From IMG/VR virus record IMGVR_UViG_3300030376_005041, positions 1 through 35,976 of that record: 35,976 bases of DNA; one strand, written 5' to 3'. The notes below the pieces were generated by a model. That model was given only the letters and a program-made list of their open reading frames with translations, did not search any database and was not told the origin of the DNA. This DNA is from a virus (Duplodnaviria > Caudoviricetes). The position numbers and the translations under genes are program-made. Shown piece by piece: positions 9,103-29,644 of this stretch (position 1 is the stretch's first letter; the number at the start of each line of letters is the position of its first letter).

Positions 9103-9183
9103 GAAAACGCCGCTTGGCATTAATCAAATGAAAATAATTAAATCAATATTTCAAGGGATTGCTGTAATATTATATATTATCGC

Positions 9184-9582
9184 ATGTCTGTCATTACTAG
9201 CATTATGAAAGAAACAATAACATTACAGACGTTTATACGTGGTTTTGAAGAACTAAGACCAAATAACTTTAGTTATCAGGGATTGGAAATATTATTTAAT
9301 CACCTCGAATCTATGGAAAGCGACGAAAACGAAATAGAATACGACGTAATAGCTTTTTGCTGTGACTATTCGGAAATGTCTATTGCTGAAATTATGGATC
9401 AATACGACATTCAAATACCTGTCGACATAATGCTCTCAACAGACGAGACGACATGCAAATACTCAGAATCTGATTTAGACGATACTGAAAAGCTTGAATA
9501 CATCTTCGAGCATTTAGAAGAGAACGGAAACGGTTATTGTGGCGTAACGAGCGAAAACACTATTATTTTCCAGTGCTATTGA
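9184..9582 (+). CDS. Acidic early phage protein (start may be ATG 9205)
   Basis: FSYQGLEILFNHLE...EYDVIAFCCDYSE pattern familiar from phage early proteins. Strongly Asp/Glu-rich. Confidence 0.75.
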   Translation: MSVITSIMKETITLQTFIRGFEELRPNNFSYQGLEILFNHLESMESDENEIEYDVIAFCCDYSEMSIAEIMDQYDIQIPVDIMLSTDETTCKYSESDLDDTEKLEYIFEHLEENGNGYCGVTSENTIIFQCY

Positions 9583-9586
9583 TAGC

Positions 9587-9625
9587 ACGCGTTCAACGTC
9601 CTACGGGGCGTTGACTGCGTTTTAT
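9587..9625 (+). terminator. Hairpin with cUACGg tetraloop (terminator or processing site)
   Basis: TCAACGTCC-TACG-GGGCGTTGA extended by ACGC/GCGT, followed by TTTATT. Confidence 0.65.
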
Positions 9626-9626
9626 T

Positions 9627-9655
9627 GTAAGAAACGTTTCTACCAAACGTAATAA
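9627..9655 (+). promoter_or_regulatory. ECF-like early promoter motif, copy 2
   Basis: GTAAG-N16-CGTAATAA directly after the hairpin and 8 nt before ATG 9664. Confidence 0.6.
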
Positions 9656-9663
9656 AACAAACC

Positions 9664-9966
9664 ATGAAAACTTATAATTACAAACTCGGATCTAATCGCG
9701 GTATTCGCAATCGTGTTTGGATAGAAGGCAAGAGACTAAGCGCAAACGGTTTTAACCGTGGCACTAGATACCGCAAAATTACCAGTGAAAACAAAATAAT
9801 ACTAGTGATTGATTCTAATGGTTCTTTAGGTGTCGCGGGTACAGACACTAGACCTATTATAGACATGTGCGGTCAAAATGTTGCCGAAATCTTTAACGGA
9901 CACGAGCGCGTCAATGCTACATTTGAACCAAAAAAAATAACAATTATCGGAGGTGAAAAAGCATGA
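9664..9966 (+). CDS. AbrB/SymE-like fold DNA-binding protein
   Basis: KLGSNRG..RVWIEGKRLSANGFNRGTRY...RPIID resembles swapped-hairpin SymE-like domains. Confidence 0.55.
   Translation: MKTYNYKLGSNRGIRNRVWIEGKRLSANGFNRGTRYRKITSENKIILVIDSNGSLGVAGTDTRPIIDMCGQNVAEIFNGHERVNATFEPKKITIIGGEKA
9756..9780 (+). repeat. 25-bp dispersed direct repeat, copy 1
   Basis: CCGTGGCACTAGATACCGCAAAATT; 24/25 identical to 11517-11541. Confidence 0.9.
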
Positions 9967-10817
9967 AGCGTAAAGATTTAATGAAAATTGCGCGTTTAGT
10001 TGCTTCTGATTCAGAAGATTTATTAAGAGCCATAAGAGAAATTGAAACAAAAGGAGATTCTACAAAGCGTGGAACTTGGTCTTATTACGCAAAAAACTTT
10101 GCAAAATGGCTGGAAAATAACGACGAGTCAATAACTCCATTTACTATTTTTGCCCGTGGAAATAGCAAATTGCCTTTTTACGCGTTCTCAGCGCTTCCAT
10201 TAGTAACATGCCCCGGCGCTGGCGCTTGTGGTAAATATTGTTACAGCTTGAAAGCGTGGCGATATCCAGCCGCATTTTTTCGGCAATGCCAAAACACTTT
10301 ATTAATAAAGCGACAATCACAAATTTTAAAACAAGCTTTTGCGGAATTACCACAAAATATAACTCTTAGACTATATGTAGATGGCGATATTGACAGCGTG
10401 CAAACTCTTTGTTTCTGGTTTGACAGATTAAGAGAACGACAAGACGTATTTGCCTACGGTTATTCTAAATCGTGGCCAACATTTTTAAAGTATCAAAAAG
10501 CGTTTGGAGATGCGGCTTTTCCAGAAAATTACAAACTCAATTTATCTAGTGGTAGCAGACACGATGAAGCACTGGCAAAGCAATTAGCGGGTTTGCCATG
10601 CTATCGTGGTCAATTTATTGCTGTTAACAGTATTAAAGCTGATAAGAACGGTTTAAACCGCACGGAGTATGCAAAATCTGTTAGAGACAGCGCCAAAACG
10701 CTTGGACATGGTCGAGTGTTCGTTTGCCCCGGCAAATGTGGAGAATGTACAAGCGCTGGCCATGCATGTGGATTAAATAAATTTAAGAACGTTACAATAG
10801 CAATTGGAATACATTAA
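9963..10817 (+). CDS. GP88-like (radical-SAM-related) Cys-rich protein
   Basis: GNSKLP...TCPGAGACGKYCY, LRLYVDGD, YGYSK and C-terminal CPGKCGEC..HACG. Strong SD (GGAGGTG). Confidence 0.75.
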   Translation: MKRKDLMKIARLVASDSEDLLRAIREIETKGDSTKRGTWSYYAKNFAKWLENNDESITPFTIFARGNSKLPFYAFSALPLVTCPGAGACGKYCYSLKAWRYPAAFFRQCQNTLLIKRQSQILKQAFAELPQNITLRLYVDGDIDSVQTLCFWFDRLRERQDVFAYGYSKSWPTFLKYQKAFGDAAFPENYKLNLSSGSRHDEALAKQLAGLPCYRGQFIAVNSIKADKNGLNRTEYAKSVRDSAKTLGHGRVFVCPGKCGECTSAGHACGLNKFKNVTIAIGIH

Positions 10818-10819
10818 TA

Positions 10820-11119
10820 ATGAAGACAAAAATTATACCTCAAATCCAATTTAAGATGGAAGGCAAATTGGATTTAATTCTAGACGACACCAAAAACTAC
10901 TCTGGAGAAGATTTGGCTAATTATTTAATTAATTACATTTTACAAGACGACAAAACGTCTAACGAATTATTTAAACCATTGGCTTATTTAATGGGAGTCA
11001 AAATGGATCAAATCGATTACATGGGAGTTGATGAAATACTCATTGAACTACCAAAACAATTGGAAGAACTTAAAAACACCAGGAAGAATATTCGTAAAAT
11101 ACTTGGTAAGAAAAACTAA
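10820..11119 (+). CDS. Hypothetical protein
   Basis: 99-aa ORF packed 2 nt after the previous stop. Confidence 0.65.
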   Translation: MKTKIIPQIQFKMEGKLDLILDDTKNYSGEDLANYLINYILQDDKTSNELFKPLAYLMGVKMDQIDYMGVDEILIELPKQLEELKNTRKNIRKILGKKN

Positions 11120-11134
11120 AACTAAACGTAATAA
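11106..11134 (+). promoter_or_regulatory. ECF-like early promoter motif, copy 3
   Basis: GTAAG-N16-CGTAATAA, 5 nt before ATG 11140. Shares GTAAGAAA-N10-AAACGTAATAA with copy 2. Confidence 0.6.
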
Positions 11135-11139
11135 CTATT

Positions 11140-11544
11140 ATGGAGATCAATTATATTGATTCAGAGAGACGGGTCGTTACAAAAGTAATGACAGTATTTG
11201 TTGTCGAGCAATACTTTTTTGATACTTGTGGGGATCTTGATCCCTATAATACAGAATATGTATTCGCTACAAAGAGCTTTGCGGAATCAAAACGCGTTCG
11301 CAATCGCATTCTTAAAGACGCTAAAACAAGCGGTGTCAGGACGCATAGATACAATTATTCGTTTGACGAGTACGGAAACAAGATCGGACACCAACTCTTG
11401 GAGAGTGATTGTGGTGATGATTATTTCTGTGAAGCGTTTGATCCTGAGTATCAAGAAACGTCCGGTAACAGTTATTTAGATCATTTGGGGAGTGATATTT
11501 GGAGTTTCACTGGAACCCGTGGCACTAGATACTGCAAAATTTAA
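11140..11544 (+). CDS. Hypothetical protein (acidic, Tyr/Asp-rich)
   Basis: 134-aa ORF in the collinear plus-strand block. Confidence 0.65.
   Translation: MEINYIDSERRVVTKVMTVFVVEQYFFDTCGDLDPYNTEYVFATKSFAESKRVRNRILKDAKTSGVRTHRYNYSFDEYGNKIGHQLLESDCGDDYFCEAFDPEYQETSGNSYLDHLGSDIWSFTGTRGTRYCKI
11517..11541 (+). repeat. 25-bp dispersed direct repeat, copy 2
   Basis: CCGTGGCACTAGATACTGCAAAATT. Confidence 0.9.
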
Positions 11545-11571
11545 TGTAGTTTTTCACGAAAACGAAACTTT

Positions 11572-11814
11572 ATGAATAAAAACGCAAAAATCAAAACAAA
11601 CATTTCGGACGCAGAGTTAGCTCTTTGCGCTCCGGAATTGTTAGAGTCTTTATGCGAGTTAATTGCAGTTTTACATCACGTTTATGACGTGTTTGAAGAG
11701 CTTCGACTTACCAGTGATAATAATTTTAAAAACCCATTAGCTAACAAAAAGATTCAAGCTATAGCAGATAGAGCTAACGACATTTTAAGAAAATCAACCG
11801 GACATGATGACTGA
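11572..11814 (+). CDS. Hypothetical phage protein with an 'APELLE' motif
   Basis: DAELALCAPELLESL resembles the common phage A.LIAAAPELLEAL motif. Confidence 0.7.
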   Translation: MNKNAKIKTNISDAELALCAPELLESLCELIAVLHHVYDVFEELRLTSDNNFKNPLANKKIQAIADRANDILRKSTGHDD

Positions 11815-12199
11815 ATTAGAATCATTAACGAATGCGTTAAAAGCGATAAGCACTATCGTTAAATATAAAGAGAGAGTTGAGTCTAGTGATTATCTAGACT
11901 GCTTTCTTTATGAAGATATGTTTCCAAATGACAGATATTGTCACGACAGTCTTGGTCATTTGCATGAGACTATTGATCAATTTTATGGAAAAGCTGATAT
12001 ATCTGAATGGCAAGACACTGCTGGTCATTCAGTATTTGTCAGGTGCGGGGATTATCATTGTGTTGAGTTTTATGATAGTGATCTCACTTTGAGTGTTTAT
12101 AGATTGAATGACAAAAACCAGGATATATGCGAATCAATTAGCTACACACTTTATAGTAACGACAAAACCAAATTGCCAATAATAGTTGTTAAGTTATGA
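11804..12199 (+). CDS. Hypothetical protein
   Basis: 131 aa, overlapping and translationally coupled to its neighbours. Confidence 0.65.
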   Translation: MMTELESLTNALKAISTIVKYKERVESSDYLDCFLYEDMFPNDRYCHDSLGHLHETIDQFYGKADISEWQDTAGHSVFVRCGDYHCVEFYDSDLTLSVYRLNDKNQDICESISYTLYSNDKTKLPIIVVKL

Positions 12200-12471
12200 A
12201 ACTGAAAAACAAAACAAAAAAACATAGAGAAATGGACGTTTCTGAGTTGAAACGTGTTATTAACATTCAACAAAAACACATCAAATCAATGCTGGATAAC
12301 GCGCATGAAACGTTTGATATCAGTCTCCAAGAATTGAATAAATTGGATGACAGTTATTACGACGTAAAATATGCAATGTTAAGAATTGAGCAAGACAAGA
12401 TTAATTGCATTGAAAATACATACGTAGCTAACACAACTAACGAACAAAAATATAATGAGCAAACAAACTAA
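12196..12471 (+). CDS. Hypothetical protein
   Basis: ATGA overlap with the upstream gene; helical. Confidence 0.6.
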   Translation: MKLKNKTKKHREMDVSELKRVINIQQKHIKSMLDNAHETFDISLQELNKLDDSYYDVKYAMLRIEQDKINCIENTYVANTTNEQKYNEQTN

Positions 12472-12700
12472 AACGATATCAGCTACACAAGCAATAGCTG
12501 ATAGAGCTAAACTTGTTGGGTTAACCGAATTGTCTAGTGATTTGTGCAAGCACATCAAATGGTTAAGAGAGCAATCGAGTGAGTCATTGTATAGCGGAGC
12601 AGGGGTTTGCGATTCTTGGTGGCTATCTGACATTGATGAACTTTTTAGTAAGGGGAATAAACTACAAGAAAAATTAGAATCAAATGAAATTACAAACTAA
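12455..12700 (+). CDS. Hypothetical protein
   Basis: 81 aa, short overlaps on both sides. Confidence 0.6.
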   Translation: MSKQTKTISATQAIADRAKLVGLTELSSDLCKHIKWLREQSSESLYSGAGVCDSWWLSDIDELFSKGNKLQEKLESNEITN

Positions 12701-12914
12701 CGAATTATCAGAATTAAATGTGAACAATGTTATGAAAGGTGCAAGTAACATTGATTTATTGGACGATGAAGCTCTTTATGTTCATGTTGGTGGTTACGTC
12801 ATATACATTGATAATTCAACTGGTGAAATGATTGTGACAATGTTTAAAGACGGTGAAACTACAAACAATGACATAAAAGTTTTAAACATTTTTAGGAAAT
12901 ATGATGACAACTAA
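12684..12914 (+). CDS. Hypothetical protein
   Basis: 76 aa with a LYVHVGGYVIYIDNSTGE beta-hairpin pattern. Confidence 0.65.
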   Translation: MKLQTNELSELNVNNVMKGASNIDLLDDEALYVHVGGYVIYIDNSTGEMIVTMFKDGETTNNDIKVLNIFRKYDDN

Positions 12915-13116
12915 ACAAATACAAAAACAAATAGTAACATATCGCCAGTGGCTCTGTGATAACGGGTTAACTGGCAATTTGAAAGCGAAACACGTTAACA
13001 AGTTTATTAAATTAGCGACTTGGAAAAGCGACGAGCAATTGGCTAAGTTTAAAGCCAAGCCACGATGGAATCAGCATTGGATAATTCGTAATTGCAGGGA
13101 GTTTGTACAGCTATGA
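12901..13116 (+). CDS. Hypothetical basic protein
   Basis: 71 aa, coupled to the next gene by an ATGA overlap at 13113. Confidence 0.55.
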   Translation: MMTTKQIQKQIVTYRQWLCDNGLTGNLKAKHVNKFIKLATWKSDEQLAKFKAKPRWNQHWIIRNCREFVQL

Positions 13117-13490
13117 AAAAATTAATAATAACAATAGCATTAAGCTGTGTCGTGTTTGGATGGGTAGTATCTAGACCATATGCCGACAAACCTAATAATA
13201 CCAGGAAAGTTATAGCAAGCTGGTATGGGGATGAGTGCGCGGGAAAACCCACGGCATCTGGAGAGATCTATGATCCGAACCAACTTACCGCAGCGATGTG
13301 GGACGTTCCATTCGATACACTTGTCCGCGTCCAACTTGGCGCGGCTACCAATACAGTAACTGTGAGAATTAACGATCGCGGCCCAGCAAAACGCTTGAAA
13401 CGAGGGATTGATTTGTCACGTAAATCTTTTTCGCAGATCGCAGATCTGGATGCGGGTTTGATCACAGTTGAATTAACAGTCTTAAAGTGA
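13113..13490 (+). CDS. rlpA: RlpA-like double-psi beta-barrel lytic transglycosylase with signal sequence
   Basis: ASWYG, TASGEIYDPNQLTAA, VRINDRGP and IDLSRKSF motifs. N-terminal MKKLIITIALSCVVFGW. Confidence 0.9.
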   Translation: MKKLIITIALSCVVFGWVVSRPYADKPNNTRKVIASWYGDECAGKPTASGEIYDPNQLTAAMWDVPFDTLVRVQLGAATNTVTVRINDRGPAKRLKRGIDLSRKSFSQIADLDAGLITVELTVLK

Positions 13491-13729
13491 CCGACACTAT
13501 GCACGTAGTCCACACCATTCACGGTTCAAGCGCAACTGCTTGGATATTACATGAAGATCCTGACTTGGTTAGATCTGACGAATTGAACCACCATACGTTT
13601 GATACCAAAATGGAAGCAGACGCTTTTCGGTCTGGGATAGAGCTATCATACGAATATTTCCAGCAATACGGAAATTGCAGTCACCCCATGTTCGTGCTTG
13701 ACGAAGATGAGAATATTAAATTAGATTAA
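13487..13729 (+). CDS. Hypothetical protein
   Basis: 80 aa, GTGA overlap; TFDTKMEADAFRSGI motif. Confidence 0.65.
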   Translation: MTDTMHVVHTIHGSSATAWILHEDPDLVRSDELNHHTFDTKMEADAFRSGIELSYEYFQQYGNCSHPMFVLDEDENIKLD

Positions 13730-13735
13730 TGTTTT

Positions 13736-13757
13736 GCGGCGCAATGCTGCTTTTTTT
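13736..13757 (+). terminator. Short intrinsic terminator
   Basis: GCGGCG-CAA-TGCTGC followed by T7. Confidence 0.5.
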
Positions 13758-13792
13758 CTTCAAACATGGTTTTGTTTGGTTATAACAGAACA

Positions 13793-13829
13793 GACTCCAG
13801 TTGTTGGTAGCGGCTGGGGTCTTTTTTTT
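13793..13829 (+). terminator. Intrinsic terminator closing the early block
   Basis: GACTCCAGTTGT...GCGGCTGGGGTC stem followed by T8. Confidence 0.8.
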
Positions 13830-13836
13830 ACCCAGT

Positions 13837-13864
13837 TTGCGTTACCGTGTTGATAATCTACAAT
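13837..13864 (+). promoter_or_regulatory. sigma70-like leaderless promoter
   Basis: TTGCGT-N16-TACAAT-N7-ATG(13872), directly after the terminator. Confidence 0.45.
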
Positions 13865-13871
13865 ATACCAG

Positions 13872-14192
13872 ATGGGAGCGGATTATCCAAAGAACGTTAA
13901 AATCTTTAATTTAGATTACGAGATAATCTGGGTCGATAAAGCGATCGAGACAGCGACTGACGCTCACGGTTCATGCGATACTTGCACTCAGACTATTGTT
14001 ATCTGTCGTGAACAAAAACCAGGAGCGCTCACTGACACTGTGATGCATGAAATAATGCATGCGATATTTTACAGTATGAATATGTCCGGCAACGAGAGTG
14101 AAGAGAAAGTTGTAAGCTTGTTAAGTACCGGAATGTGTACAGTGCTGAGAGACAATCCCAAATTAAAAAAATGGATCGTAAAAAATCTCTAA
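13872..14192 (+). CDS. Small zincin-like metallopeptidase (HExxH)
   Basis: DTVMHEIMHAIF plus a downstream EEKVV third-ligand motif. Confidence 0.8.
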   Translation: MGADYPKNVKIFNLDYEIIWVDKAIETATDAHGSCDTCTQTIVICREQKPGALTDTVMHEIMHAIFYSMNMSGNESEEKVVSLLSTGMCTVLRDNPKLKKWIVKNL

Positions 14193-14395
14193 CCCCAAGC
14201 AACGAAATGTTGTTCGATCGTATGGCTGTTGAAGCGAGTAGGGCGGTGGTGTATCGCGATACAGTGCTTGAAGTTGATGCGTTGTTGAAAGATTTACTGG
14301 ATCTAAACGCAACTTATTATTCATCCCAGACTCTTGAGATTATTCGTCAACGTATCCGCGCTCAACTCGGTGACGCTGGTCTTATTATAGAATAA
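14171..14395 (+). CDS. Hypothetical protein (start uncertain: 14135 or 14171)
   Basis: Helical ORF overlapping the methyltransferase 3' end convergently. Confidence 0.45.
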   Translation: MDRKKSLTPSNEMLFDRMAVEASRAVVYRDTVLEVDALLKDLLDLNATYYSSQTLEIIRQRIRAQLGDAGLIIE

Positions 14396-15106
14396 ATTTT
14401 TTAAAATTTGAACAACAAGCGGCACGCAAACAGCGTTTCCAAGAGATCTTAATTTATCTACACGTTTGTCCACCCGTTTGGAAACCCCATCAACCATTCG
14501 CAAAATTTCGGGATCAAGTTTTGGCCAAACCGATTCTTGAAAACTCTTCCCAGCAAACCATTCTCCGGCACGTTTTTCAAATTCCCCGTGTCTTTCCAGT
14601 CTCTCGCTGTTGGGGTTGGCCACGATCCAGACTCTGTCCCGCTGGTGTGGAGCGCCAACGTGGGAAGCTGGTATGCAATGCCATTCCGCATCATACCCGA
14701 TCTCGGCCAAGTCTCGCAAAATACGTCCGAACCAAGCTCCATTGTCTCCGTTAAGCAGCATTGGGACGTTTTCCATGAGCGCGATTCTTGGTCTAGCTTC
14801 GCCAATAACTCGAACCAATTCGCTCCATAAACCCGTGCGTTCTCCATCCACTCCATTTCTTTCTCGTCTTGTTTGAGCAATCGATGCGTCTTGGCATGGG
14901 AACCCAGCGGTAAGAAGAGTTGGTCGTCTCCATTCTCGTCCGTTAAATTGTTTAACATCATCTATTATCGGAATAGTTGGCCAATGTTTTTTTAGAACAG
15001 TCTTGCAGAACGGGTCGCTTTCGCAAAAGCAAATAGTTTTCAGCCCGACTTCTCGACAAGCTAATGCGAACCCACCTATTCCACTGAAAAGATCTACGTG
15101 AGTCAT
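14321..15106 (-). CDS. DNA (cytosine-5) methyltransferase, alpha-like polypeptide
   Basis: Motif I DLFSGIGGF, IV GFPCQ, VI ENV, VIII QRDRVWIVA and X LGNAV. Motif IX is missing from this frame. Confidence 0.93.
   Translation of the reverse strand: MTHVDLFSGIGGFALACREVGLKTICFCESDPFCKTVLKKHWPTIPIIDDVKQFNGREWRRPTLLTAGFPCQDASIAQTRRERNGVDGERTGLWSELVRVIGEARPRIALMENVPMLLNGDNGAWFGRILRDLAEIGYDAEWHCIPASHVGAPHQRDRVWIVANPNSERLERHGEFEKRAGEWFAGKSFQESVWPKLDPEILRMVDGVSKRVDKRVDKLRSLGNAVCVPLVVQILKNLFYNKTSVTELSADTLTNNLKSLG
14458..14961 (-). CDS. Nested beta-like polypeptide of the C5-methyltransferase (TRD + motif IX)
   Basis: Alternative frame on the same strand encodes WPTPTARDWKD and LIPKFCEWLMGFPNGWT (motif IX-like). 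Confidence 0.75.
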   Translation of the reverse strand: MMLNNLTDENGDDQLFLPLGSHAKTHRLLKQDEKEMEWMENARVYGANWFELLAKLDQESRSWKTSQCCLTETMELGSDVFCETWPRSGMMRNGIAYQLPTLALHTSGTESGSWPTPTARDWKDTGNLKNVPENGLLGRVFKNRFGQNLIPKFCEWLMGFPNGWTNV

Positions 15107-20080: not shown

Positions 20081-23000
20081 TTACCTAGCGTATGTTGATG
20101 GATCAATTCCAGTTTGTTGGAATATCTGTTGGGATACTGATGGACTGATTATTTTCTTGTTACGCAGATCACGTAAATACTCTATTTTTCTCTCATACGG
20201 CATCTCGTCTAAACGCTGAATAATGAAACTAGCTCTTGCTTTACTTGCAACCCCTAGCCCCCTCACGCGCCTGTCTATCCGACCCACCAAATTAGCGTCG
20301 TCATCAATAGCTTTTTTGTATTTCCGGAACAGCACGGAATTGCCCTGACTAGCACTTCGAGCGCGGATCATTCTGTCCATGACTGACATCCCCTTCGTGT
20401 CCGTGACAAATTTCTGAATTGCTCTTTTTTCTATTAGTTGCCGATCAGCTTCTGTTCGTTCTATTACTTTTAATTGTTCTTCTGTTTCCGATTCGTTGAC
20501 ATACGGACTGCGAATAAAACGCCTAAAAAGTGGTGATTGGTCACTAAATATGCCCAGTGGTTTTCTCCCTGTTTCACGGGGCGGCATAAACTGAGTAAAT
20601 AATCCAGCAGTCATTGTGCTGGTTAGCTGCTTTAACATTAACGGAGAACGAAACTGTTCCGGTAAAGCGTCTGGCATAAGTTCAGCCATGCCACGAAAAA
20701 ACTTGGGAGTGCTTTGAAAATATTGCTGTTCTGGTGAAGCTGCTCTCATGTATTCCGGCACAGTATCACGATGCAACCAAGTGTTTCTGTTTAAACCAAA
20801 TTCTATTGGCGATTTAAATAATGGATTTAAACTGCTAACTACAGATTCTACCCGTTCACCTAAATTTTCACCACTAACACTCACTGGCATTATGTTTTCT
20901 AAAAACACAACTGCCATTTTTTTCAATTCTTTTGAGTTGCGTGTTTCTAAAAACTCCATCGACGATTCAACAACATTAGAGAACAACTTTGAAATTTCAC
21001 GTTTTGGAATCCGATAATATTCTCTGACTCTTTTCCCCTCATCATTCACAAAAAATTGATCTGTTGGGATATGCCAATAATTTTCTTTGTCACGATCCAA
21101 AATATCTTCGTAATCATCTTTGTATTCATCGCTGTTGTTCAGCGCCCATAACGCGACAGTTGGAACTCCAACAGCAGTAGCTAAACGTAATTGCATTATA
21201 GCAGCATTTTTCCCACCGTCTTTTCCAGCAAGTCTTCCCAAGTCCGCAGCAACACCTTGTACGCGTGCGTTAAAATACATAAACACCAAGTTAAGTTGCG
21301 CTGATCTTGTTATTGCTCCTTGTCTTCCAAAATCTGGCGATCCAGCAAAGTTCCGAACTTCAGCTACAATTTCACCCATACGCTCACGCTGTTGTTCGGG
21401 AGTCATTTTAGCTAAATTCTCAATACGCATACCGCGCTTTAAACCGACCAACTTGCTAGTTTCTTCAACGCTACTAGCTAATTGAACTATTGCACTTAAC
21501 AAACCTCTTGCAGATAATTTAAATTCACGTTCAGTTGGTTTTACTTTAAATAATTCTGGTGTTAATTCACGTTGAAGTGTTGATCGTGCTGCTCCGCTGT
21601 TTAAAAAATCTTTGTATAGTGCATTTGGTTTGCCGAAATTCCCAGTAACGGAACTATATAATGCATGAACATAATCTAATGGTAATCTAATTAAATCAGC
21701 GGGACTACGGAACCCGTATTTGCTAACCATTGCTAGACGCGGCATGTCAGCAGCAAATAAATTAACAAACTGAAACGCCATGTTAAATGTTGTTGCCCCA
21801 GCTTTCATTGGAATTGATGCCGCAGCCATAGCTTTTGAAATCAAACCAGTTGCTTGAGCATTCAACCCCTCTATAGAACGTGCGACTTCACGGTTAACAG
21901 CTAAATGTTTTTGCTCCCCATCAACAAACACCGTAACTTCGTGGTCAGCTTTTTCTCTAACTTTCTTTTTCTTGCCAACTTTAGTTTCTTTTAACTCTCG
22001 AACTAAACCAGTCTCGTCAATTTGAGATAACGCATACAACTCTTGCATTTTCAGATTCTTGTCAGCCAACATGTAGCTCGTGAGAATCTTGTCATACGCA
22101 GCGTCGATAAAATCACCTAACCGGAAATCAGTATTGTCGATTCCGGTAATCATTTTAGCTAATTGTTTAGTTGTATCTATTCGATCACCAGTTGCTGAAG
22201 CGGTTTCTGAATCTTGCAAATGTTGCAACACGACGAACGGGGCATAAAAATCATTTGAGTTAACAATGTTGTTTAATGTCTCTTGAGAAATACGCCCACT
22301 GTCCATCTGCATACGCAGCATTGCCGACATAAATTCCTGGTATTGTTCAACAGCGCTCTCAAGCTGCTTCATTTGCTCTGGCGTAATATCAGCTTCGAGT
22401 TCTTTAAGAAGTCTGTTTGCGTCATCGAGCGTGTAGTCCGCAACACGTTTGCGAGTTGGATCGTCTTCAAGACGCTGCTTTGTTCGACGCAAAAACATTA
22501 ACCGATTAAATTGTTTTTCAAGTCCCTTAATTGGTTTCACCACTGCGTCGTGGAAATCCAGCATTAACTTTTCTGCACGGGCTGGCGATCCGGCTAACTG
22601 TTCAAACTTGCGTGCTAGATCAAAGCGTGGCGCTTTTTTGCCCATGACTTTAAACACTTTAGACTCTAAATGTTTTAGTGGTTTAAATCGGCTCAAGAAA
22701 TTCGTAGAAAAACCTTCAATGACCGAACGTAATTTTGACCCAAACGATTCGGGTTCTGTTTCTAGTGGTGAAAAGATTCGGTCAACATCGATCATCGACT
22801 TTGGCTTAACCCCAAGCTCAGTGTCTAAATTTTCAGAACGGTTTTTAAATTCAGCTATTTGCTCGTCTGCTTGTTCTTGAGTAAGTTCTTTTTTATTAAC
22901 TTTTTTACGAAGTTCTTTTTCAAAAGTTTTTAAATCGCTTTCAAACACTTCGGACTCTGGATCTCGTTTAGCAAGCACAGCACGAACAGCGTCTTCGACA

Positions 23001-25909
23001 GATAAGTTGTGTGTTTTAGCTTGTTCAGTGCCTAGCAGTTCTTTTATTTCGTTTAAAACATTCCGCAGTTCACTTTTAGTTTCAACTGGGTCAGCTTTCT
23101 TTTTACGCCCCTTCTTTGATGCTTCCAGTTTTAAGTCGGGTTGTTTATTTAAAGTGTTTCTAGCGCGTGACAATGCAGTATCGACTGCTTGGCGTTTCTT
23201 GCCAGTTGTTTCAACAATCTCAGCAGGGGTTAACCCGTCCATTGTTAACTGCATTACTTCGCGTTGTGCTTTTGGCAGCTTATCGATAGCTTTTGCTACT
23301 CTCTGTAAGCGTTCACTTTTACGTAATGTTTCTTCCGGTGACGGTGCTAAATCAGCTTCTTGATCGATCACAGTTTGACCAGTTTCTTCGTCCGGAGTAA
23401 CTGTCGTTTCTTTTTTGTTAATGTTTTGCTGATCTCGTCCAAGATCATTAATTTTATTGGCAGCAATTGTGCGTGCCATTTGTTCAAACTTATTGCGATC
23501 CAACGTTCCTTTTTTAAGCATGTCGAGAAGCGCAAGTTTTGTATCTGTCGTAGCGCTTACAGCAGCGTCTGCTTTTTTTGTTTTGCCGAAAAATCTTCTA
23601 CCCGCATAGTTTTCAGAAACTTGGTCTACAAATTTATTTTCGTCTTCAGTCAGTTCTTGTTCCTGCTGAGTCGGTTGCTGTTGCGTTTTAGTTACCGGTT
23701 CAGCAGTCGTTTGCGCTTCTTCAAATGCGCCTTCCGGTGGTTGTAATGGCTCCGGTTGTACCCGTTCAGCTTCACCTCGTTGTTCTTGCTGTTCGGTAAA
23801 TCGCTTTTGTTCAAGCTCAGCAGACTGTTCTGCTGTGCGTAAAAATCCTTGTTGATCTAACTTACCACCTTCAACTTGTTTGGTGCGGCGCTGGTCAATA
23901 ACCTCGCTGCTGGGTATCACTTTTGGCGATCCGGTAACAACCAGCGGTTCGTTTAAAATGTCCTCCAACGACTGCCACTGCAATATTACCGGTGGACGAG
24001 TCGGCCCAATTGGGTCTTTTGTTTGGCGCACACCAGTAACGTCACGACGTTTGGCGCGTTCCATTTCAATTTGCTCTTGCTGCTCCATTGACTCAGCAGT
24101 TGCAATTTGTTCAGCGCGTGCCATCTCAACGTCGCTCATGTCATTTGAGCGATCTTCAATGTCTTGAAGCAACCCGACAAGATTCTCTACTTCAGATTCA
24201 ATAGTCTTCGGATCAAGCTCGTCGTTCTTAACTTTGCGTCGGATATAATCAAATGCTCTCCGGAAATAATTCCTGGTAGCTGGTGCTGGAGTTAACCCAA
24301 GTTCGTTCCACAGCAAGCTTTCAGTAACACTCCCGTGCCGACGTTCTTGCACTAACATGCGGACATATTCTGCGCCCATAGTGCCATCAGAAATGTCTTC
24401 CCCATAAACATCTGTTACATGCTTTTTCTGGGCTTCAGTCATTTCAGACGCTATTTTTTCAAAACGTTCTTTAGCGTATTCTCCAAATGATAGTTCTGAA
24501 TTTGATGCGTCCCATTCACCTAGCAGAGTTTTTAAATGAGCGTCATGTATAGACTCTTCTTGAATGAGTTTTTTAATATACTCATTAGCATCGAGTCCGT
24601 TATCTTTTATGTGTTTCTTTAAATTTTTTAAATTAACAGTTAATCGGCCAATTCCCGTTACATGAGCGATATGCGGATCGTCATTGTCAGTAAAAATTAC
24701 TTCATCAAAATTGCTGTATTTAGATGAGTCTAATTCGTTAACAACTTGATTTGGAACAGAACCTTCTTGAAGAATTTCACCAGCATTAGCATCGATGTTA
24801 GTTACATGAACCCCGTCTGTTTCTGTAGCTGGGCCAAGTTCTGGGTCAACTGTTTGTTGTTCTTCAATTGATTCTAAATATTTTTTTAAGACTTCTTGTT
24901 CACGATTGTTTTTGACGTTATCAACTTTGTCTTGTGTCGCTTTTAAATCTTTTTGAACTTGTTTGTCTTTCAGCATGTTAATGCCGGATATACCAGATTG
25001 CTGTAAAGCACCGGGGCCAACTCCTGCAACACCTTCTATAAACACTTCTGACGGTGACGTGATTTCCCCCTCCGAAGCTAATTGACCAGCAGCTTCACCA
25101 ACCGAACCCCCCGCACCTTCAATTCCTAGCTTCTTAACTGGACCACTAACAAGTCCACCGAGTTTCATTGTCATTAAATCGACAAGTGCAATCGGGACTC
25201 CGTATTTTAAACTCTTGTTTCTTAAATTAGAAACTGTGTCTGGATCGGTAAATGACGAACGAATTGCATCAGCGTTAGTAACGTCAATTCCCTCTTCAAC
25301 TAACATTTCGTTAAATTTTGCTCCGTAAGAAACTCCAAGAGTTGTTACTGCTTGTCCACTAACAAAACCAACACCAGCACCAGCTATTGTTCCAACACCG
25401 GGAACTACCGACCCAGCAGCAGCGCCAGCAGCCACTCCAACTGCGGTTCTACTAGCACCGTAATTAACTTGTGCAGACAATGATTCGATAATGATTTGCC
25501 CCCCGATCTCAAACGGGTCTTTTATAAATCTGCTAATTTTGTCTTCTTCTGGTGCTTCTGAAAATTCGATGTACGCTTTGCTTCCGCGTAACGCTTGCGA
25601 ACGACGATTGGCTAAAGCCATTTCTTCAAAACGGTCTTCGTCAGAAAATGTTCCGAAACTTTCTCCAACTAAAACATCTGCGGTAGTCGCTTGGTTAGCC
25701 CCACGAAGCCAAGCGTTTCTGAAAGTGTTAAAGAACTCACTATCTTCGTTGCGATCCCATGTTAATGAACTAAAATCTTCGTTAAAATCTTCAAATTGAC
25801 CAAGTAACTTGGGGTAATTTTTACCAATTGATATAACAAGTTCTTCATCTGAAAAATCTTTAAACTTTTCTCCGTAATTTCTACGTGCTGACTCGACGAC
25901 ACTGTTCAT
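20081..25909 (-). CDS. Large internal virion/ejection polyvalent protein: hydrophobic Gly/Ala N-region, degenerate zincin-like domain, embedded ECF sigma module, LPD38-like C-terminus
   Basis: 1942 aa, last gene of the virion module. GAAAGSVVPGVGT membrane-insertion motif; QEESIHDAH; sigma2/sigma4 motifs near aa 755-925; KENYWHIP...YYRIPK and LNPLFKSPIE..LNRN. Confidence 0.85.
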   Translation of the reverse strand: MNSVVESARRNYGEKFKDFSDEELVISIGKNYPKLLGQFEDFNEDFSSLTWDRNEDSEFFNTFRNAWLRGANQATTADVLVGESFGTFSDEDRFEEMALANRRSQALRGSKAYIEFSEAPEEDKISRFIKDPFEIGGQIIIESLSAQVNYGASRTAVGVAAGAAAGSVVPGVGTIAGAGVGFVSGQAVTTLGVSYGAKFNEMLVEEGIDVTNADAIRSSFTDPDTVSNLRNKSLKYGVPIALVDLMTMKLGGLVSGPVKKLGIEGAGGSVGEAAGQLASEGEITSPSEVFIEGVAGVGPGALQQSGISGINMLKDKQVQKDLKATQDKVDNVKNNREQEVLKKYLESIEEQQTVDPELGPATETDGVHVTNIDANAGEILQEGSVPNQVVNELDSSKYSNFDEVIFTDNDDPHIAHVTGIGRLTVNLKNLKKHIKDNGLDANEYIKKLIQEESIHDAHLKTLLGEWDASNSELSFGEYAKERFEKIASEMTEAQKKHVTDVYGEDISDGTMGAEYVRMLVQERRHGSVTESLLWNELGLTPAPATRNYFRRAFDYIRRKVKNDELDPKTIESEVENLVGLLQDIEDRSNDMSDVEMARAEQIATAESMEQQEQIEMERAKRRDVTGVRQTKDPIGPTRPPVILQWQSLEDILNEPLVVTGSPKVIPSSEVIDQRRTKQVEGGKLDQQGFLRTAEQSAELEQKRFTEQQEQRGEAERVQPEPLQPPEGAFEEAQTTAEPVTKTQQQPTQQEQELTEDENKFVDQVSENYAGRRFFGKTKKADAAVSATTDTKLALLDMLKKGTLDRNKFEQMARTIAANKINDLGRDQQNINKKETTVTPDEETGQTVIDQEADLAPSPEETLRKSERLQRVAKAIDKLPKAQREVMQLTMDGLTPAEIVETTGKKRQAVDTALSRARNTLNKQPDLKLEASKKGRKKKADPVETKSELRNVLNEIKELLGTEQAKTHNLSVEDAVRAVLAKRDPESEVFESDLKTFEKELRKKVNKKELTQEQADEQIAEFKNRSENLDTELGVKPKSMIDVDRIFSPLETEPESFGSKLRSVIEGFSTNFLSRFKPLKHLESKVFKVMGKKAPRFDLARKFEQLAGSPARAEKLMLDFHDAVVKPIKGLEKQFNRLMFLRRTKQRLEDDPTRKRVADYTLDDANRLLKELEADITPEQMKQLESAVEQYQEFMSAMLRMQMDSGRISQETLNNIVNSNDFYAPFVVLQHLQDSETASATGDRIDTTKQLAKMITGIDNTDFRLGDFIDAAYDKILTSYMLADKNLKMQELYALSQIDETGLVRELKETKVGKKKKVREKADHEVTVFVDGEQKHLAVNREVARSIEGLNAQATGLISKAMAAASIPMKAGATTFNMAFQFVNLFAADMPRLAMVSKYGFRSPADLIRLPLDYVHALYSSVTGNFGKPNALYKDFLNSGAARSTLQRELTPELFKVKPTEREFKLSARGLLSAIVQLASSVEETSKLVGLKRGMRIENLAKMTPEQQRERMGEIVAEVRNFAGSPDFGRQGAITRSAQLNLVFMYFNARVQGVAADLGRLAGKDGGKNAAIMQLRLATAVGVPTVALWALNNSDEYKDDYEDILDRDKENYWHIPTDQFFVNDEGKRVREYYRIPKREISKLFSNVVESSMEFLETRNSKELKKMAVVFLENIMPVSVSGENLGERVESVVSSLNPLFKSPIEFGLNRNTWLHRDTVPEYMRAASPEQQYFQSTPKFFRGMAELMPDALPEQFRSPLMLKQLTSTMTAGLFTQFMPPRETGRKPLGIFSDQSPLFRRFIRSPYVNESETEEQLKVIERTEADRQLIEKRAIQKFVTDTKGMSVMDRMIRARSASQGNSVLFRKYKKAIDDDANLVGRIDRRVRGLGVASKARASFIIQRLDEMPYERKIEYLRDLRNKKIISPSVSQQIFQQTGIDPSTYAR

Positions 25910-26820
25910 TGATTACGTTGATTTCTAATATCATCAGCTATTACATCACCAAAGTCCGCAGCGCCGCCCATGCCGCCGCCCATGCCGCCGCCCATGCCGC
26001 CTCCGCCCATGCCGCCGCCAGTATTAATCCCCATTGATTGTATTTTTTTATAAAATGCTTCTGCGTCAGTTACCGAAGCGCCATCTAATTTAAAATTATA
26101 TGCTGTTTGCCCTGTCAACGTACTGGTGTACGGAACAATTGAAACTTGCCCAGTGTGTGGCTGGTTGCTTGAAGCCATGAACGCTTGTTCTAAACCAGAT
26201 AAAAAATCTTTGTGCGTATTAACCATACTGTCTCGCACTGCCATTAAATCGAGAAGTTCTGGAGTATCTGAACGAGCAAAATTTTCTATCTTGCCCGTAT
26301 CTGGATTTCTTACTTCTCGCGGAGTTTGCAGTTCATTAATTCTGTTTAAGATCGGGCCAATTTCTGAAGCATGTCTAGCTCCTGCTGCACCAACTGTTTT
26401 TTTGTAATGATCTAACAACGCTGCTTTTTCTTTAAAAACACCTATCAACGGATTTGTTGCATTTTCTGCTTTTGCTTGAGCTAATTTTGCTTCTGCATTT
26501 GCTTTAGTTATTTCAGACGAACGTAATTCTTTTTTGTGTTTTTTTTCGTCTTTAGCATCCCGCATACCTCTTTTTAAAGACTTAGTTCGCAGATCACTTT
26601 CTTTTTTATCGCGTTTTGATTTTCTCTTCGCACGTTTTTCAGCACTTTCTGCACGATCTTCTGCACTATCTGCGCGATCTTCTGCTCTATCAGCACGTTT
26701 ATCTGCTTTTTTGCGATACTTGCTTCGTTCTTTTCTTTCTGCTGACGCTAGATTTGACGCACGAATATCACGCGCCATGTCCATGCCCATCGAAAGTCCT
26801 GTTGAAAATGATCTAGCCAT
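25906..26820 (-). CDS. Internal virion (ejection) protein
   Basis: SFSTGLSMGMDMA start, charged coiled coil with ADRAEDR heptads, GGGM tail. Lies between the other ejection genes. Confidence 0.7.
   Translation of the reverse strand: MARSFSTGLSMGMDMARDIRASNLASAERKERSKYRKKADKRADRAEDRADSAEDRAESAEKRAKRKSKRDKKESDLRTKSLKRGMRDAKDEKKHKKELRSSEITKANAEAKLAQAKAENATNPLIGVFKEKAALLDHYKKTVGAAGARHASEIGPILNRINELQTPREVRNPDTGKIENFARSDTPELLDLMAVRDSMVNTHKDFLSGLEQAFMASSNQPHTGQVSIVPYTSTLTGQTAYNFKLDGASVTDAEAFYKKIQSMGINTGGGMGGGGMGGGMGGGMGGAADFGDVIADDIRNQRNQ
25963..26019. repeat. GCCGCCGCCCAT 12-bp tandem repeats encoding (GGGM)n
   Basis: Direct reading; very GC-rich relative to its surroundings. Confidence 0.85.
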
Positions 26821-26821
26821 A

Positions 26822-27652
26822 TTATGCGTTTAGTCCAAATATTCCACTAACCCCTTTACCAAATGATTGTCCACCAGCCATTCCAGCCATACCCCCAGTT
26901 AATGCAGTTAAACCAAGCCCAGCGCCCATTCCAGCTATTTGACTTAATGGGCCACCTTCTTGCGCCATTCGCATTTGTTGGTTGTATATATTGCCAGTAC
27001 CTTGTGCAAATTGGCTATTGTTCATCACCCCGACTCCGCTATTCATTATGTTTTGCCCCTGAAACGCAGATGCCCCTTGTTGCGCTCCGCTTAATTGAGA
27101 AAATTGAGCCACTGGAGAAACACCAGCGCCAAATGCTGCTTTGTTAGCTATGTCTTGTTGATACATTCTAAAACCAACATCGCCAACTGCCATTGCTTCT
27201 TGAATGCTAGGTGCGTTTCCAAATAAATTACCACGCGCTGCTTGCGATCCGCGTGCGCCTCTAACAGCACCTTCTGCTGCTTGTGTAAAATATTTTTCTG
27301 GGCCACCTTCAGAAATTTGACGACCCAATTCTTGGCGCATTTTAAAACCTTCTGGATCGGCTGCTGCCATTTCTTTGCGACGTTGTTTAACAACATCAAC
27401 GCCGTATGTTTCAGCAGTTTCTAATGAACCCGCAGCCAATTTATCTGCTGCTTCTATCCAAAAATCTAAATTTGCACGGGATAAATCAATGTCACCAATG
27501 CCCCTAAAATCATATTCTTTCCCCTCGACAGTTCCTTTTTCGCCAAGTCTAGCTAAACGATCAAGCTGCTTGCGCGGCCCGACAGTTGCCATCTCAGCAT
27601 TTATTTGCTCTCTTGCCGCACCCCCGTAATCTGGTTCATCTCTACATCCCAT
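26822..27652 (-). CDS. Internal virion / DNA pilot protein
   Basis: PDY start, RGSQAARGNLFG, Gln/Gly/Ala-rich, hydrophobic Gly-rich C-terminus. Confidence 0.7.
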   Translation of the reverse strand: MGCRDEPDYGGAAREQINAEMATVGPRKQLDRLARLGEKGTVEGKEYDFRGIGDIDLSRANLDFWIEAADKLAAGSLETAETYGVDVVKQRRKEMAAADPEGFKMRQELGRQISEGGPEKYFTQAAEGAVRGARGSQAARGNLFGNAPSIQEAMAVGDVGFRMYQQDIANKAAFGAGVSPVAQFSQLSGAQQGASAFQGQNIMNSGVGVMNNSQFAQGTGNIYNQQMRMAQEGGPLSQIAGMGAGLGLTALTGGMAGMAGGQSFGKGVSGIFGLNA

Positions 27653-27653
27653 T

Positions 27654-28025
27654 TTAAAATACTTTCGCCATCATGTTTGCTTTACCCAAATTGGTGTAAC
27701 CCAATCTCGACATCACTGGTAAAAAAGGTGATTTATCGGACAATGGAACTAAAGTCCCACCCGAACCACTCAATCTAATTTGATTTTCTAACACGCTAAT
27801 CACGTTAATACTGTCTTTCGCTTTCATTCTTTCACTATGAAACCATGTGTTTACAGCAGTCAATGCTCCTACACTTGCATATCCGGACAATTTCCCGTCC
27901 TTGTCGAACACATGCGTCGGCAAAACTGGTGAGTGATCGTCCCAACCAGCTTCTGTGTTCAGTGCAACTAATTCGTCTCTGTCTCTCAACGGTCTTACAA
28001 TGACCATTTTGTTGATTAAGTCCAT
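27654..28025 (-). CDS. Small tail-module protein, possibly GNAT-like fold
   Basis: VRPL start, VFDKDGKLSGY, MSRLGY; occupies the position between nozzle and ejection genes. Confidence 0.5.
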   Translation of the reverse strand: MDLINKMVIVRPLRDRDELVALNTEAGWDDHSPVLPTHVFDKDGKLSGYASVGALTAVNTWFHSERMKAKDSINVISVLENQIRLSGSGGTLVPLSDKSPFLPVMSRLGYTNLGKANMMAKVF

Positions 28026-28063
28026 AACTCCAAATCTTACACATCATCTTACACTCCCTCTAG

Positions 28064-29644
28064 CTACCGTTTTTCAGCGTCTAATCCCATAACAATGGCA
28101 CTAGCTTTAACACCTCTTAATTGTATCTTATTTTCTTCAGCTTCTATTCTAAACTGTATTTGATTGAATGTGCCTTTACTAATGTTTGAATACGCTTTTT
28201 TAACAACTTCAGTTCTACCGAACATAAATGGCAATGCTTTTGGAAGCACTACACCACTGCCAGCAGCAGTGTCTATTTTCGATGTGTTTAAACGTTGTTC
28301 AGTTAGAACGTCATCTCGGATTTGGTAAACATCAACGAGAGCGCGACTGTTGTTCCATTCAAATTCAGCGTTCCGACCAATCTTGTCGTTCATCTGCTCA
28401 CGAAAAACAAAACCGCGAGTAGTAATTGACGATGGGTAGAACACTCCGTCATCTTTAAAAGTGCTATCTGTCTCGTCGTTTTGCGCTACGTATTCTAACC
28501 AAGTTAAAACCTTACCGTCTGGTTGGCCAAAATTTAAACGCAACTGACCAGCAAAAGCACTTTCTGCAAAAACAGATGGAGTCCAGTTCGTCCAATAACC
28601 AGACCAGGATTGTGTAACTGTATTATAAACTAATGTGTAATTGTTTGTAGTCGCTCCATCTATTGGAACTGACAGCAAATAACGGTTGTTCCAGAATTTA
28701 GCACATGCTTTATCTGCAACGTTCCAATTAATTCGTTCTATAAAATTTCCAATCGCAGTGCTTATTGGTTGTGGTTCAACAATAGTCTGTGCGCCGTTTA
28801 AAACCTGACCAATAGACATTACTCCGAACCTACTTAAATAAAACACATCACCACCAACTTCAGCTACAGATCGTTTTGCAGCACAACCAAAACGGTCACT
28901 TATTTGTTTAACTTCCCAAAAAGAAGAAACTAATAATTGCGGGTTAGTGTTAACTAAAAATACGCTACGTTCTTTAAATACAATAAGATTAAAATTAGCC
29001 CAACTTTGCAGCGCAATAATTGGATCGCCACTGTGTCCACCAATTCTTATCTGATCGTTTGTGGTATCCCACGTAGTTCCGTCAATAATTGCAGATGCAT
29101 ATATTGCGTCTTGCGGTTGATTCGGAACACCAAACCCAAATAAACGATTTGTATGTAATGTAATTCCGCTAAACTCTAAACCATGTTCGCTAGGAACAGT
29201 GCTAGTAGCGTCGCTTGTAATCATCCGCATTTTGTTTGCGCCATCTGCAACAAACATTTTATCAACCATTTGAACCAAATCTACTTGGTTGGTTGCGTGA
29301 ACGGTGTTTTTAGCTCCTGTTAATTGCGTCCAACTGCTTTCGTCAGAATCACACCTCCACAATTTGCCGTCAGAAGCGCATATTAAACGCTCTCTAGCAC
29401 CTACTGGATCGTCATAATACGCTAACCCCTGTATAGCAGTTGAATGTGCAGTGCTGGGAAATTTTGTCGTTCCCTTGCGAGTAACAACAGTTCCGAACGT
29501 GTTAACATCTACGTTCTTCCCGTCAGTAAATTGATTCTTGTTTAAAAGATTGGGTCTAACGTCACTAACCTGACCACCTAAAAACGAAATAGTATCGTCA
29601 AAAACGAGTGGTTCATCTAACAAGTTTGATGCATACCGTGGCAT
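28064..29644 (-). CDS. Tail nozzle / tail tubular protein B (P22 gp10-like beta-propeller)
   Basis: SFLGG start, NVD...VVTRKG, LIVFKERSV, FGCAAKRSV..VGGDVFYLSRFGV and NRYLLSVP. Confidence 0.85.
   Translation of the reverse strand: MPRYASNLLDEPLVFDDTISFLGGQVSDVRPNLLNKNQFTDGKNVDVNTFGTVVTRKGTTKFPSTAHSTAIQGLAYYDDPVGARERLICASDGKLWRCDSDESSWTQLTGAKNTVHATNQVDLVQMVDKMFVADGANKMRMITSDATSTVPSEHGLEFSGITLHTNRLFGFGVPNQPQDAIYASAIIDGTTWDTTNDQIRIGGHSGDPIIALQSWANFNLIVFKERSVFLVNTNPQLLVSSFWEVKQISDRFGCAAKRSVAEVGGDVFYLSRFGVMSIGQVLNGAQTIVEPQPISTAIGNFIERINWNVADKACAKFWNNRYLLSVPIDGATTNNYTLVYNTVTQSWSGYWTNWTPSVFAESAFAGQLRLNFGQPDGKVLTWLEYVAQNDETDSTFKDDGVFYPSSITTRGFVFREQMNDKIGRNAEFEWNNSRALVDVYQIRDDVLTEQRLNTSKIDTAAGSGVVLPKALPFMFGRTEVVKKAYSNISKGTFNQIQFRIEAEENKIQLRGVKASAIVMGLDAEKR

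Follow-up and report, generated by a model that had tools for sequence, protein, structure and literature searches.

How does a phage without an RNA polymerase (RNAP) gene begin to transcribe its DNA in a new host? In small phages of this kind that infect starved or slow-growing hosts, early transcription is usually credited to strong promoters for host sigma factors. The Caudoviricetes record IMGVR_UViG_3300030376_005041 (35,976 nt, analysed at full length and called the window below) may use a different route. It encodes an N4-gp56-family capsid protein, an SU10-type portal, a terminase and DnaC-like replication genes, as in a podovirus-like phage, and a Pfam scan of 38 window open reading frames (ORFs) revealed no RNAP gene. 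One ORF product, the 1942-aa protein P0001, was read in an initial annotation, made from the DNA letters alone, as a virion ejection protein carrying an extracytoplasmic function (ECF) sigma factor that redirects host core RNAP before any phage protein is made. Here, we report that P0001 contains a whole, diverged ECF-like sigma module, whose presence in related genomes coincides with that of a bipartite promoter-like motif. We put at roughly two in three the probability that the module is a sigma factor delivered in the virion which, together with host core RNAP, starts transcription at early promoters specific to the phage.

P0001 contains a complete ECF-like sigma module

The giant ORF lies where the initial annotation had placed it, and the module occupies aa 752–922 of P0001 (window 23144–23656); the stretch quoted in that annotation corresponds to aa ~807–922 (window ~23140–23490). 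Pfam Sigma70_r4_2 (PF08281) matched aa 869–920 (E = 1.4e-9; 37.9 bits against a cut-off of 25.7), NCBIfam TIGR02937 matched aa 794–923 with the whole protein as query (51.3 bits against a cut-off of 42.9), and the sigma factor family PHROG 1740 matched with E = 2.7e-10. Verrucomicrobia- and Planctomycete-type ECF models were among the NCBIfam matches. The expectation that profiles would recover both sigma domains was thus borne out for sigma4 and by TIGR02937, but not by Pfam Sigma70_r2 (PF04542), which matched neither P0001 nor the excised module.

The AlphaFold model of the module, built from an alignment of only six phage sequences, showed a domain of three helices at the N-terminal end (aa 755–834) and one of four helices at the C-terminal end, joined by a disordered linker, with a pLDDT of 74–89 in the sigma2 block (mean pLDDT 75, pTM 0.42). 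This is the order of ECF, or group 4, sigma-70 factors (sigma2, short linker, sigma4 and no sigma3), and it agrees with the two domains in order and spacing that had been described at first. All PDB rows listed in a Foldseek search with this model were sigma factors or sigma-containing complexes (best E = 7e-4; two rows at E ≤ 0.001). Moreover, VIA-align placed residues 1–87 of the model on sigma2 of ShbA (9m84_F; Z = 8.6, rmsd 3.6 Å, 82 residues aligned) and on the region-2 fragment of E. coli sigma70 (1sig_A; Z = 7.5), and the module also matched the phiEco32 gp36 complex 9m7y (Z = 7.0). The sigma2 match in VIA-align is not proof by itself, because three-helix bundles are common and unrelated helical bundles reach Z = 7.9. 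A sigma2 fold was nevertheless recovered by AlphaFold, Foldseek and VIA-align, rather than the generic helix-turn-helix alone that had been named as an alternative outcome.

A profile of the module, searched over 1.84 billion representatives, returned 3431 proteins; the matches listed were mostly stand-alone proteins of 170–230 aa, many aligned over both domains. All six stand-alone matches that were scanned carried Sigma70_r2 and Sigma70_r4_2, one of them with r2 below the cut-off, and hhalign aligned the module to a stand-alone ECF sigma over 141 columns (97.9%). Identity to the nearest stand-alone sigmas aligned was 20–27%. The profile, fold and profile-search evidence combined indicates that the module is a complete, diverged ECF-like sigma factor. 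The divergence described in the initial annotation was confirmed by alignment: the positions that hold D/Q/E in region 2.2 of ordinary sigma factors read S/T/D in P0001, and the region 2.3 Trp is Met. The triad reads D/L/Q in P0014 and D/Q/D in the related record G006, whose module has a Trp nearby. The Q/E/P-rich linker before the module and the basic stretch after it were also present.

Sigma2 is predicted to dock on the RNAP clamp helices

Following the suggestion that the module be modelled with core RNAP, the complex of P0001 aa 752–841 was modelled with an alignment of Cerasicoccus/verrucomicrobial β′ residues 8–340 as a stand-in host. The sigma2–β′ model scored 0.64, whereas the best of three controls scored 0.00; a mark of 0.64 is attained by 116 of 157 solved pairs and by 2 of 215 mismatched pairs. 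The runs shared at least 77% of contacts, and the partner pLDDT was at least 82. In the modelled interface, region 2.2 (aa 781–795) lies against the β′ clamp helices, with contacts from D781, V784, S785, T788, K791, L792 and L795. The model therefore predicts sigma2 on the clamp helices. It shows likeness rather than binding, because this is a textbook pair with many structures, which the predictor may have memorised, and the host is a stand-in.

The module is conserved, with selective constraint on sigma2 in close pairs

Among 2661 candidates of similar length, 11 homologues (1922–2048 aa) were found, all with Sigma70_r4_2 and LPD38, so that the survey of homologous giant proteins proposed at first found the module in 11 of 11. 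Module identity across the homologues was 49–96%, the module was internal and in frame in every full-length relative, and the ETG of the linker was invariant in seven of seven aligned modules. It is filed here as an ECF-like module and not as a member of an ECF group, because it is an internal domain in all 12 proteins. Two close pairs indicate purifying selection on sigma2 (dN/dS = 0.15 and 0.08, 83–84 codons). For sigma4, dN/dS was 0.89 and 0.59 in the same two pairs, from very few changes, and 0.10 and 0.09 in distant pairs.

These data bear on the idea that the module is a decaying passenger from a host ECF gene and that the motif described below is unrelated to it. The missing Sigma70_r2 match would fit decay, as would the orthologues that manage without the module. 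This idea is largely refuted already, since the open frame and the module are retained in all relatives at saturated synonymous distance and sigma modules recur in other giant proteins, and we give it next to no weight.

A bipartite motif precedes small ORFs of the likely early block

The three promoter candidates of the initial annotation share the motif GTAAGA-N15/16-CGTAA (Table 1). With one mismatch allowed there were still only three sites in the window, all on the (+) strand and all within a low-GC block of small ORFs (GC 0.356 vs. 0.421), which is called early from its layout; no site precedes structural or replication genes. Because the pattern was chosen after the window sites had been seen, the weight lies on out-of-sample tests. 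The motif was present in three of five relatives (2, 2 and 4 copies), whereas the reversed control gave 0; the two relatives without it are 48% and 42% complete. Ten sources yielded 22 sites, 21 of them distinct and with unrelated spacers. Nineteen of the 21 lie 6–108 nt 5′ of an ATG and the other two at contig ends, and the proteins downstream fall into at least five unrelated groups. Several copies (window 9627–9666 and 11106–11142; L011, L009 and L012) are only 6–11 nt from the ATG, which implies leaderless or near-leaderless transcripts.

In addition, an unbiased survey covered all 6+5 gapped words with spacers of 14–18 nt in the window, G001, G004 and G006. Five words were common to these four sigma-bearing genomes; GTAAGA/CGTAA was the commonest (11 copies; next, 10), and each of the remaining four contains a poly-T or poly-A half. 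Ten matching tests on sigma-lacking genomes passed no word. A single-genome de novo 5+5 motif search was discarded as too noisy. Sigma70-type sites in 8300–14400 were at chance level (23 vs. 18.9 ± 4.3); with regional matches at chance and the invariant bases off that consensus, the motif was rejected as a sigma70 promoter. We infer that GTAAGA is the −35 element, contacted by sigma4, and CGTAA the −10 element, contacted by sigma2.

This layout was weighed against two other uses of the module. One is that sigma4, with or without sigma2, only grips the motif and thereby guides, anchors or shields the genome as it enters, as the better conservation of sigma4 at long range might suggest; polyvalent proteins are described as carrying DNA-binding domains in PMC5512222. 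We consider this very unlikely, given that the motif is bipartite with a free spacer of 15–16 nt and stands just before start codons, that close pairs show purifying selection on sigma2 and that its clamp-facing helix was modelled confidently. The other is that the sigma is real but comes from newly made protein, through an internal start or late synthesis, and reads the same sites later. In-frame Met codons occur at aa 608 and 616 in the linker before sigma2, phiEco32 gp36 serves middle and late genes (PMC12276001, in part), and the timing of the (+) strand block is itself inferred. Against late reading, the sites stand before the small-ORF block alone and before no structural or replication gene, sigma70-type sites that could start that block are not enriched in it, and every full-length relative carries the module as an in-frame fusion, which makes this explanation improbable.

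Module and motif occur together

Nine related records were at least 90% complete. Sigma module and motif were both present in G004 and G006, and neither was found in G009, G011, G013, G016, G018, G019 and G026. Five of these seven sigma-lacking records retain the LPD38 protein (30–35% identical). No sigma match was obtained with Pfam or NCBIfam in eight sigma-lacking LPD38 orthologues (four complete, three 5′-truncated and one 1367-aa piece from G018), three of which gave weak ART-PolyVal matches below the cut-off. Searching the retrieved sequence stretches in six frames with the module profile likewise gave no sigma module. The motif shared by the promoter candidates of the initial annotation is kept by sigma-bearing relatives, and those without the sigma lack it.

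Across 80 terminase loci, the motif was found in 10 of the 16 loci L015–L030 (terminase 82–99% identical) and in 0 of the 64 others; the six motif-less loci of the first set hold only 233–1123 nt upstream of terL. One of the 64 others had GTAAGA-N17-CGTAA, and 16 looser matches read GTAAGT or GTAAGC. No alternative −35 before CGTAA was recurrent by eye in 38 of the 80 loci. A different element was seen upstream of terL in L061 and L092 of the sigma-lacking clade, where tandem CGTAAC copies follow a conserved GC-rich stretch.

The most informative case is G006. Its sigma is 23% identical to that of P0001 and lies in a different giant protein, whose C-terminal half is not LPD38; it keeps TIAxNKxxDxGR in region 2.4 and KRxAVD in the recognition helix, and the genome carries two motif copies. 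The same 2133-aa protein (L098:5266–11664) has, at aa 699–771 and upstream of sigma, a queuine tRNA-ribosyltransferase-like stretch (phrog_887, E = 4e-5), possibly an injected base-exchange enzyme.

The motif is not enriched in sampled genomes of the likely host phylum

The best cultured terminase matches were three Akkermansia phages (34–38%, E = 1e-59 to 2e-75; next best 3e-42), the sole match among prokaryote genomes was a Cerasicoccus frondis contig, and the giant protein P0167 carries the name of an Opitutaceae bin. The host is likely in Verrucomicrobiota. A terminase search of 401 genomes of the Cerasicoccus phylum gave nine matches (best 43% identity) and no close prophage. The motif occurred in 58 of 201 genomes of this phylum (75 sites, at most 4 per genome), less often than the reversed control, which gave 72 sites within the first 60 rows alone (hand tally). 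The motif is thus not a common host promoter among the 201 sampled genomes.

This count bears on whether the injected module is a decoy that binds host core and blocks host sigmas without initiating, the motif being read by a host ECF sigma. The diverged regions 2.2 and 2.3 would suit such a role; ECF models of Verrucomicrobia and Planctomycete type are among the matches, and CGTAA resembles ECF −10 elements. The decoy is nonetheless unlikely. Both DNA-binding domains and their spacing are retained, module and motif agree in presence or absence in nine of nine near-complete records, and the motif is not enriched in the 201 genomes. Furthermore, in a phage without its own polymerase, blocking the core would halt phage transcription too.

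Sigma modules recur in other giant proteins

The Cerasicoccus frondis contig, from a cultured strain in which induction might be feasible, encodes a 3983-aa polyvalent protein (L008:5918–17869) with an IQEEAIH motif, LPD3, Kinase-PolyVal and an intact Sigma70_r2 (PF04542, E = 3.8e-12) plus r4; its gene has a terminase-like ORF on one side and an SU10-type portal on the other, with a resolvase nearby. Viral relatives of this type of sigma were sought, and none of three candidate stretches was confirmed. Sigma domains were also found in P0165 (4951 aa, with a helicase), in P0166 (3454 aa, with ART-PolyVal and an internal-virion-protein PHROG at E = 1e-14) and in P0167, P0168 and P0169 (3172–6018 aa), and in P0015 a sigma4 of the P0001 family is fused to PBECR3 and ART-PolyVal. 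The sigma modules of other giant proteins stand in different architectures. Because they are only 15–23% identical to that of P0001, giant proteins have likely captured a sigma factor more than once.

A zincin-like domain and a border peptide flank the module

Three features of P0001 had been overlooked in the initial annotation, namely a zincin-like domain at aa ~365–560, the LPD38 domain and a border peptide after sigma4. In the first, E451, E452, H455 and E513 are invariant in 12 of 12 proteins (EExxH plus a distal Glu), and HExxH is found in 2 of 15 aligned relatives. The top VIA rows for its model were mostly zincin-fold proteins at Z = 5–6.8, and it had no Foldseek match at E ≤ 0.001 and no Pfam or PHROG match.

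The peptide L-x-A-S-[TK] directly follows sigma4 in nine of nine full-length family proteins scanned and in the fragment P0015. P0010 and P0015 have a copy on either side of their inserted modules, and the Cerasicoccus sigma is flanked on both sides by L-x-A-R-[TG]-D. In P0010, a 230-aa insert without a Pfam match (aa 758–988) follows sigma4 between two L-x-A-S-T-Q copies. Self-cleavage at the border peptide by the protein's own zincin domain is speculative; as no such peptide precedes sigma2 in P0001, it would yield an N-terminal half that ends in the sigma, behind the flexible linker.

Gene context of P0001

P0001 is a phage-type polyvalent protein: large, multidomain, with an LPD domain, and encoded beside virion genes after the tail/head-closure block. 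Its 526-aa neighbour matched phrog_3287 (E = 6e-15) and phrog_578 (E = 4e-11), and the 276- and 304-aa ORFs, with no significant family match, may have an ejection-type role by position. Elsewhere in the window, two adjacent DUF2589 genes lie near the tail region (34615–35606, (-); E = 6e-30 and 1e-11). A GP88-family protein (9963–10817, (+); E = 2e-13) lies inside the likely early block, DPBB_1 marks a lytic-transglycosylase-like protein with a hydrophobic N-terminus (13092–13490, (+)), and a small SprT-like HExxH protein lies beyond the terminator-like hairpin (13872–14192, (+)). At 8379–8451, between terS and terL, a 22-nt sequence with an internal inverted repeat stands three times in tandem, possibly as a pac site, an operator or an origin.

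Table 1. Features of the P0001 locus and of the likely early block, in window positions
Feature	Position	Strand	Remarks
Giant phage-type polyvalent protein P0001, 1942 aa	20081..25909	(-)	closes the tail/ejection block; ORF and Pfam
Zincin-like metallopeptidase-type domain	24110..24817	(-)	E451-E-S-I-H455 and E513
Q/E/P-rich variable linker, aa 601–751	23657..24109	(-)	sequence; length varies in alignment
Sigma2-like domain, aa 752–835, regions 2.1–2.4	23405..23656	(-)	three-helix model, VIA, clamp-helix model
Acidic disordered sigma2–sigma4 linker, aa 836–857, conserved ETG core	23339..23404	(-)	pLDDT < 50
Sigma4 helix-turn-helix domain, aa 858–922, recognition helix KRQAVDTALSRAR	23144..23338	(-)	Pfam PF08281, fold searches
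Module-border peptide L-x-A-S-[TK], aa 928–932	23114..23128	(-)	directly 3′ of sigma4; candidate cleavage/recombination joint
LPD38 domain, aa 1598–1772	20594..21118	(-)	Pfam PF18857, E = 9e-17
Upstream neighbours: 526-, 123-, 276- and 304-aa ORFs	25906..29644	(-)	526 aa tail/head-closure-like
Candidate promoter 1, GTAAGA-N16-CGTAA	9074..9100	(+)	83 nt before ORF 9184–9582
Candidate promoter 2, GTAAGA-N15-CGTAA	9627..9652	(+)	11 nt before ORF 9664–9966; just past hairpin 9593–9614
Candidate promoter 3, GTAAGA-N15-CGTAA	11106..11131	(+)	8 nt before ORF 11140–11544
Likely early block, small ORFs opposite the virion-gene strand	9184..13822	(+)	ends at terminator-like hairpin 13792–13822

Discussion

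We propose that P0001 is likely part of the virion and enters the cell along with the DNA, as its gene position and the analogy with phi24B gp47 suggest; according to bioRxiv 10.64898/2026.04.10.717836, virion proteomics detected that 2811-aa protein, which combines LPD38 with a metallopeptidase. The module would bind host core RNAP, with sigma2 predicted on the β′ clamp helices, and the sigma-loaded core would start at GTAAGA-N15/16-CGTAA before the likely early genes, ahead of phage protein synthesis. In the least certain step, the zincin domain might cut the sigma part from the C-terminal half at L-x-A-S; alternatively, the module may work while tethered by the 150-aa flexible linker. More tentatively, and a little short of an even chance in our view, this would be a third route to early transcription, beside promoters for host sigmas and virion RNAPs, in which a sigma cassette in an ejected polyvalent protein was recruited more than once in Verrucomicrobiota phages, is cut out at the border peptide and has its −35 specificity reprogrammed by a swappable sigma4.

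Several observations weigh against delivery of a working sigma factor. In the module itself, Sigma70_r2 is unmatched, the region 2.2 triad and the region 2.3 Trp are replaced, and in distant pairs sigma2 drifts faster than sigma4 (pN 0.49 vs. 0.19). On the motif side, the three window sites of GTAAG-N-CGTAA (0.34 expected) belong to a pattern picked post hoc, and single-genome gapped-word searches yield many words of 3–4 copies by chance. Shared ancestry alone could also yield the co-occurrence, because it is confined to one terminase clade with 82–99% identity, and a small ECF regulon in the true host, which may exist, would escape the 201-genome motif count. For release, the zincin motif of P0001 has Glu in place of its first His, the fold match is weak, and the border peptide was not found upstream of sigma2 in P0001. 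Finally, the recognition helix varies: L157, L158 and L168 have the N-x-V-Y type instead of KRxAVD. These three (L168 module at 3209–3757) combine a near-identical sigma2 and linker with a swapped sigma4, which occurs in both sub-clades, and their contigs do not include the early block; G434 and G435, relatives with the N-x-V-Y type sigma4 that are 36% and 23% complete, gave no motif match. From sequence comparison, this sigma4 is possibly a counter-example in waiting, or possibly a switch of −35 specificity.

If virion delivery is true, the 3500-residue enzyme of N4 would have a compact alternative, and polyvalent proteins a new class of cargo; such loci would also be a source of orthogonal sigma–promoter pairs. 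In the more tentative third-route reading, each phage would own an orthogonal sigma–promoter pair active from second zero and independent of the host sigma state. If, in that reading, the module is tethered to the ejection conduit, host RNAP could also pull the genome in. The idea is testable without culturing the phage, because the 170-aa domain and the 11-base bipartite motif, rare in the likely host phylum, are both known.

ECF sigmas such as SigW, CnrH, ShbA and SigL likewise consist of sigma2, a short linker and sigma4 without sigma3, and have a bipartite motif with a 15–16-nt spacer; they are small stand-alone proteins, whereas the P0001 module lies in the middle of a 1942-aa protein with the region 2.2 triad and the 2.3 Trp replaced. 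Phage-encoded sigmas such as T4 gp55 and SPO1 gp28 are also stand-alone and direct host core RNAP to phage promoters. The phage sigma phiEco32 gp36 (PMC12276001, in part) redirects host core RNAP to phage promoters, as proposed here, but is stand-alone and acts after sigma70-driven early transcription, whereas the P0001 sigma is embedded and would act at entry. In the accessible part of PMC7824862, the group 2 sigmas of jumbo phages are stand-alone, and sigmas and polyvalent proteins are handled separately. Within the available text of these two papers, no sigma is described that travels in the virion or forms a domain of an ejection protein. The literature searched, which covered few subscription papers, likewise gave no description of a virion-borne sigma.

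Like P0001, the phage-type polyvalent proteins of Iyer 2017 (PMC5512222, in part) are large multidomain proteins encoded among virion genes with LPD38. That paper lists LPD38 as phage-only, proposes that a zincin-like metallopeptidase (MPTase) releases domains, and gives jump-starting transcription as a purpose. Its transcription cargo consists of N4-like RNAP and RNAP-modifying enzymes, whereas that of P0001 would be a sigma module; sigma has no mention in the main text as available, and the supplementary architecture lists, outside that count, could hold a sigma fusion. T4 Alt (same source) enters together with the DNA and, as the P0001 module would, turns host RNAP toward phage promoters, but it modifies RNAP covalently as an ADP-ribosyltransferase, whereas the P0001 module is of the promoter-recognition subunit type.

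The closest functional parallel to the reading proposed here is the N4 virion RNA polymerase (PMC13434306 and PMC5512222, both in part), a giant, ejected, MPTase-bearing beads-on-a-string protein that uses phage-specific early promoters; in the accessible part of PMC13434306, on N4 ejection, sigma is named only as software. No RNAP domain was found in P0001 with Pfam, PHROGs or the best 25 of 45 NCBIfam matches listed, all of which were sigma, and P0001 is not an N4-type virion polymerase. N4 delivers a whole catalytic polymerase, whereas P0001 would bring only a 170-aa specificity module that borrows the host core. To these known systems the present locus adds a complete two-domain sigma module and a cognate motif, the latter upheld by tests out of sample, on presence and absence, and against the host background.

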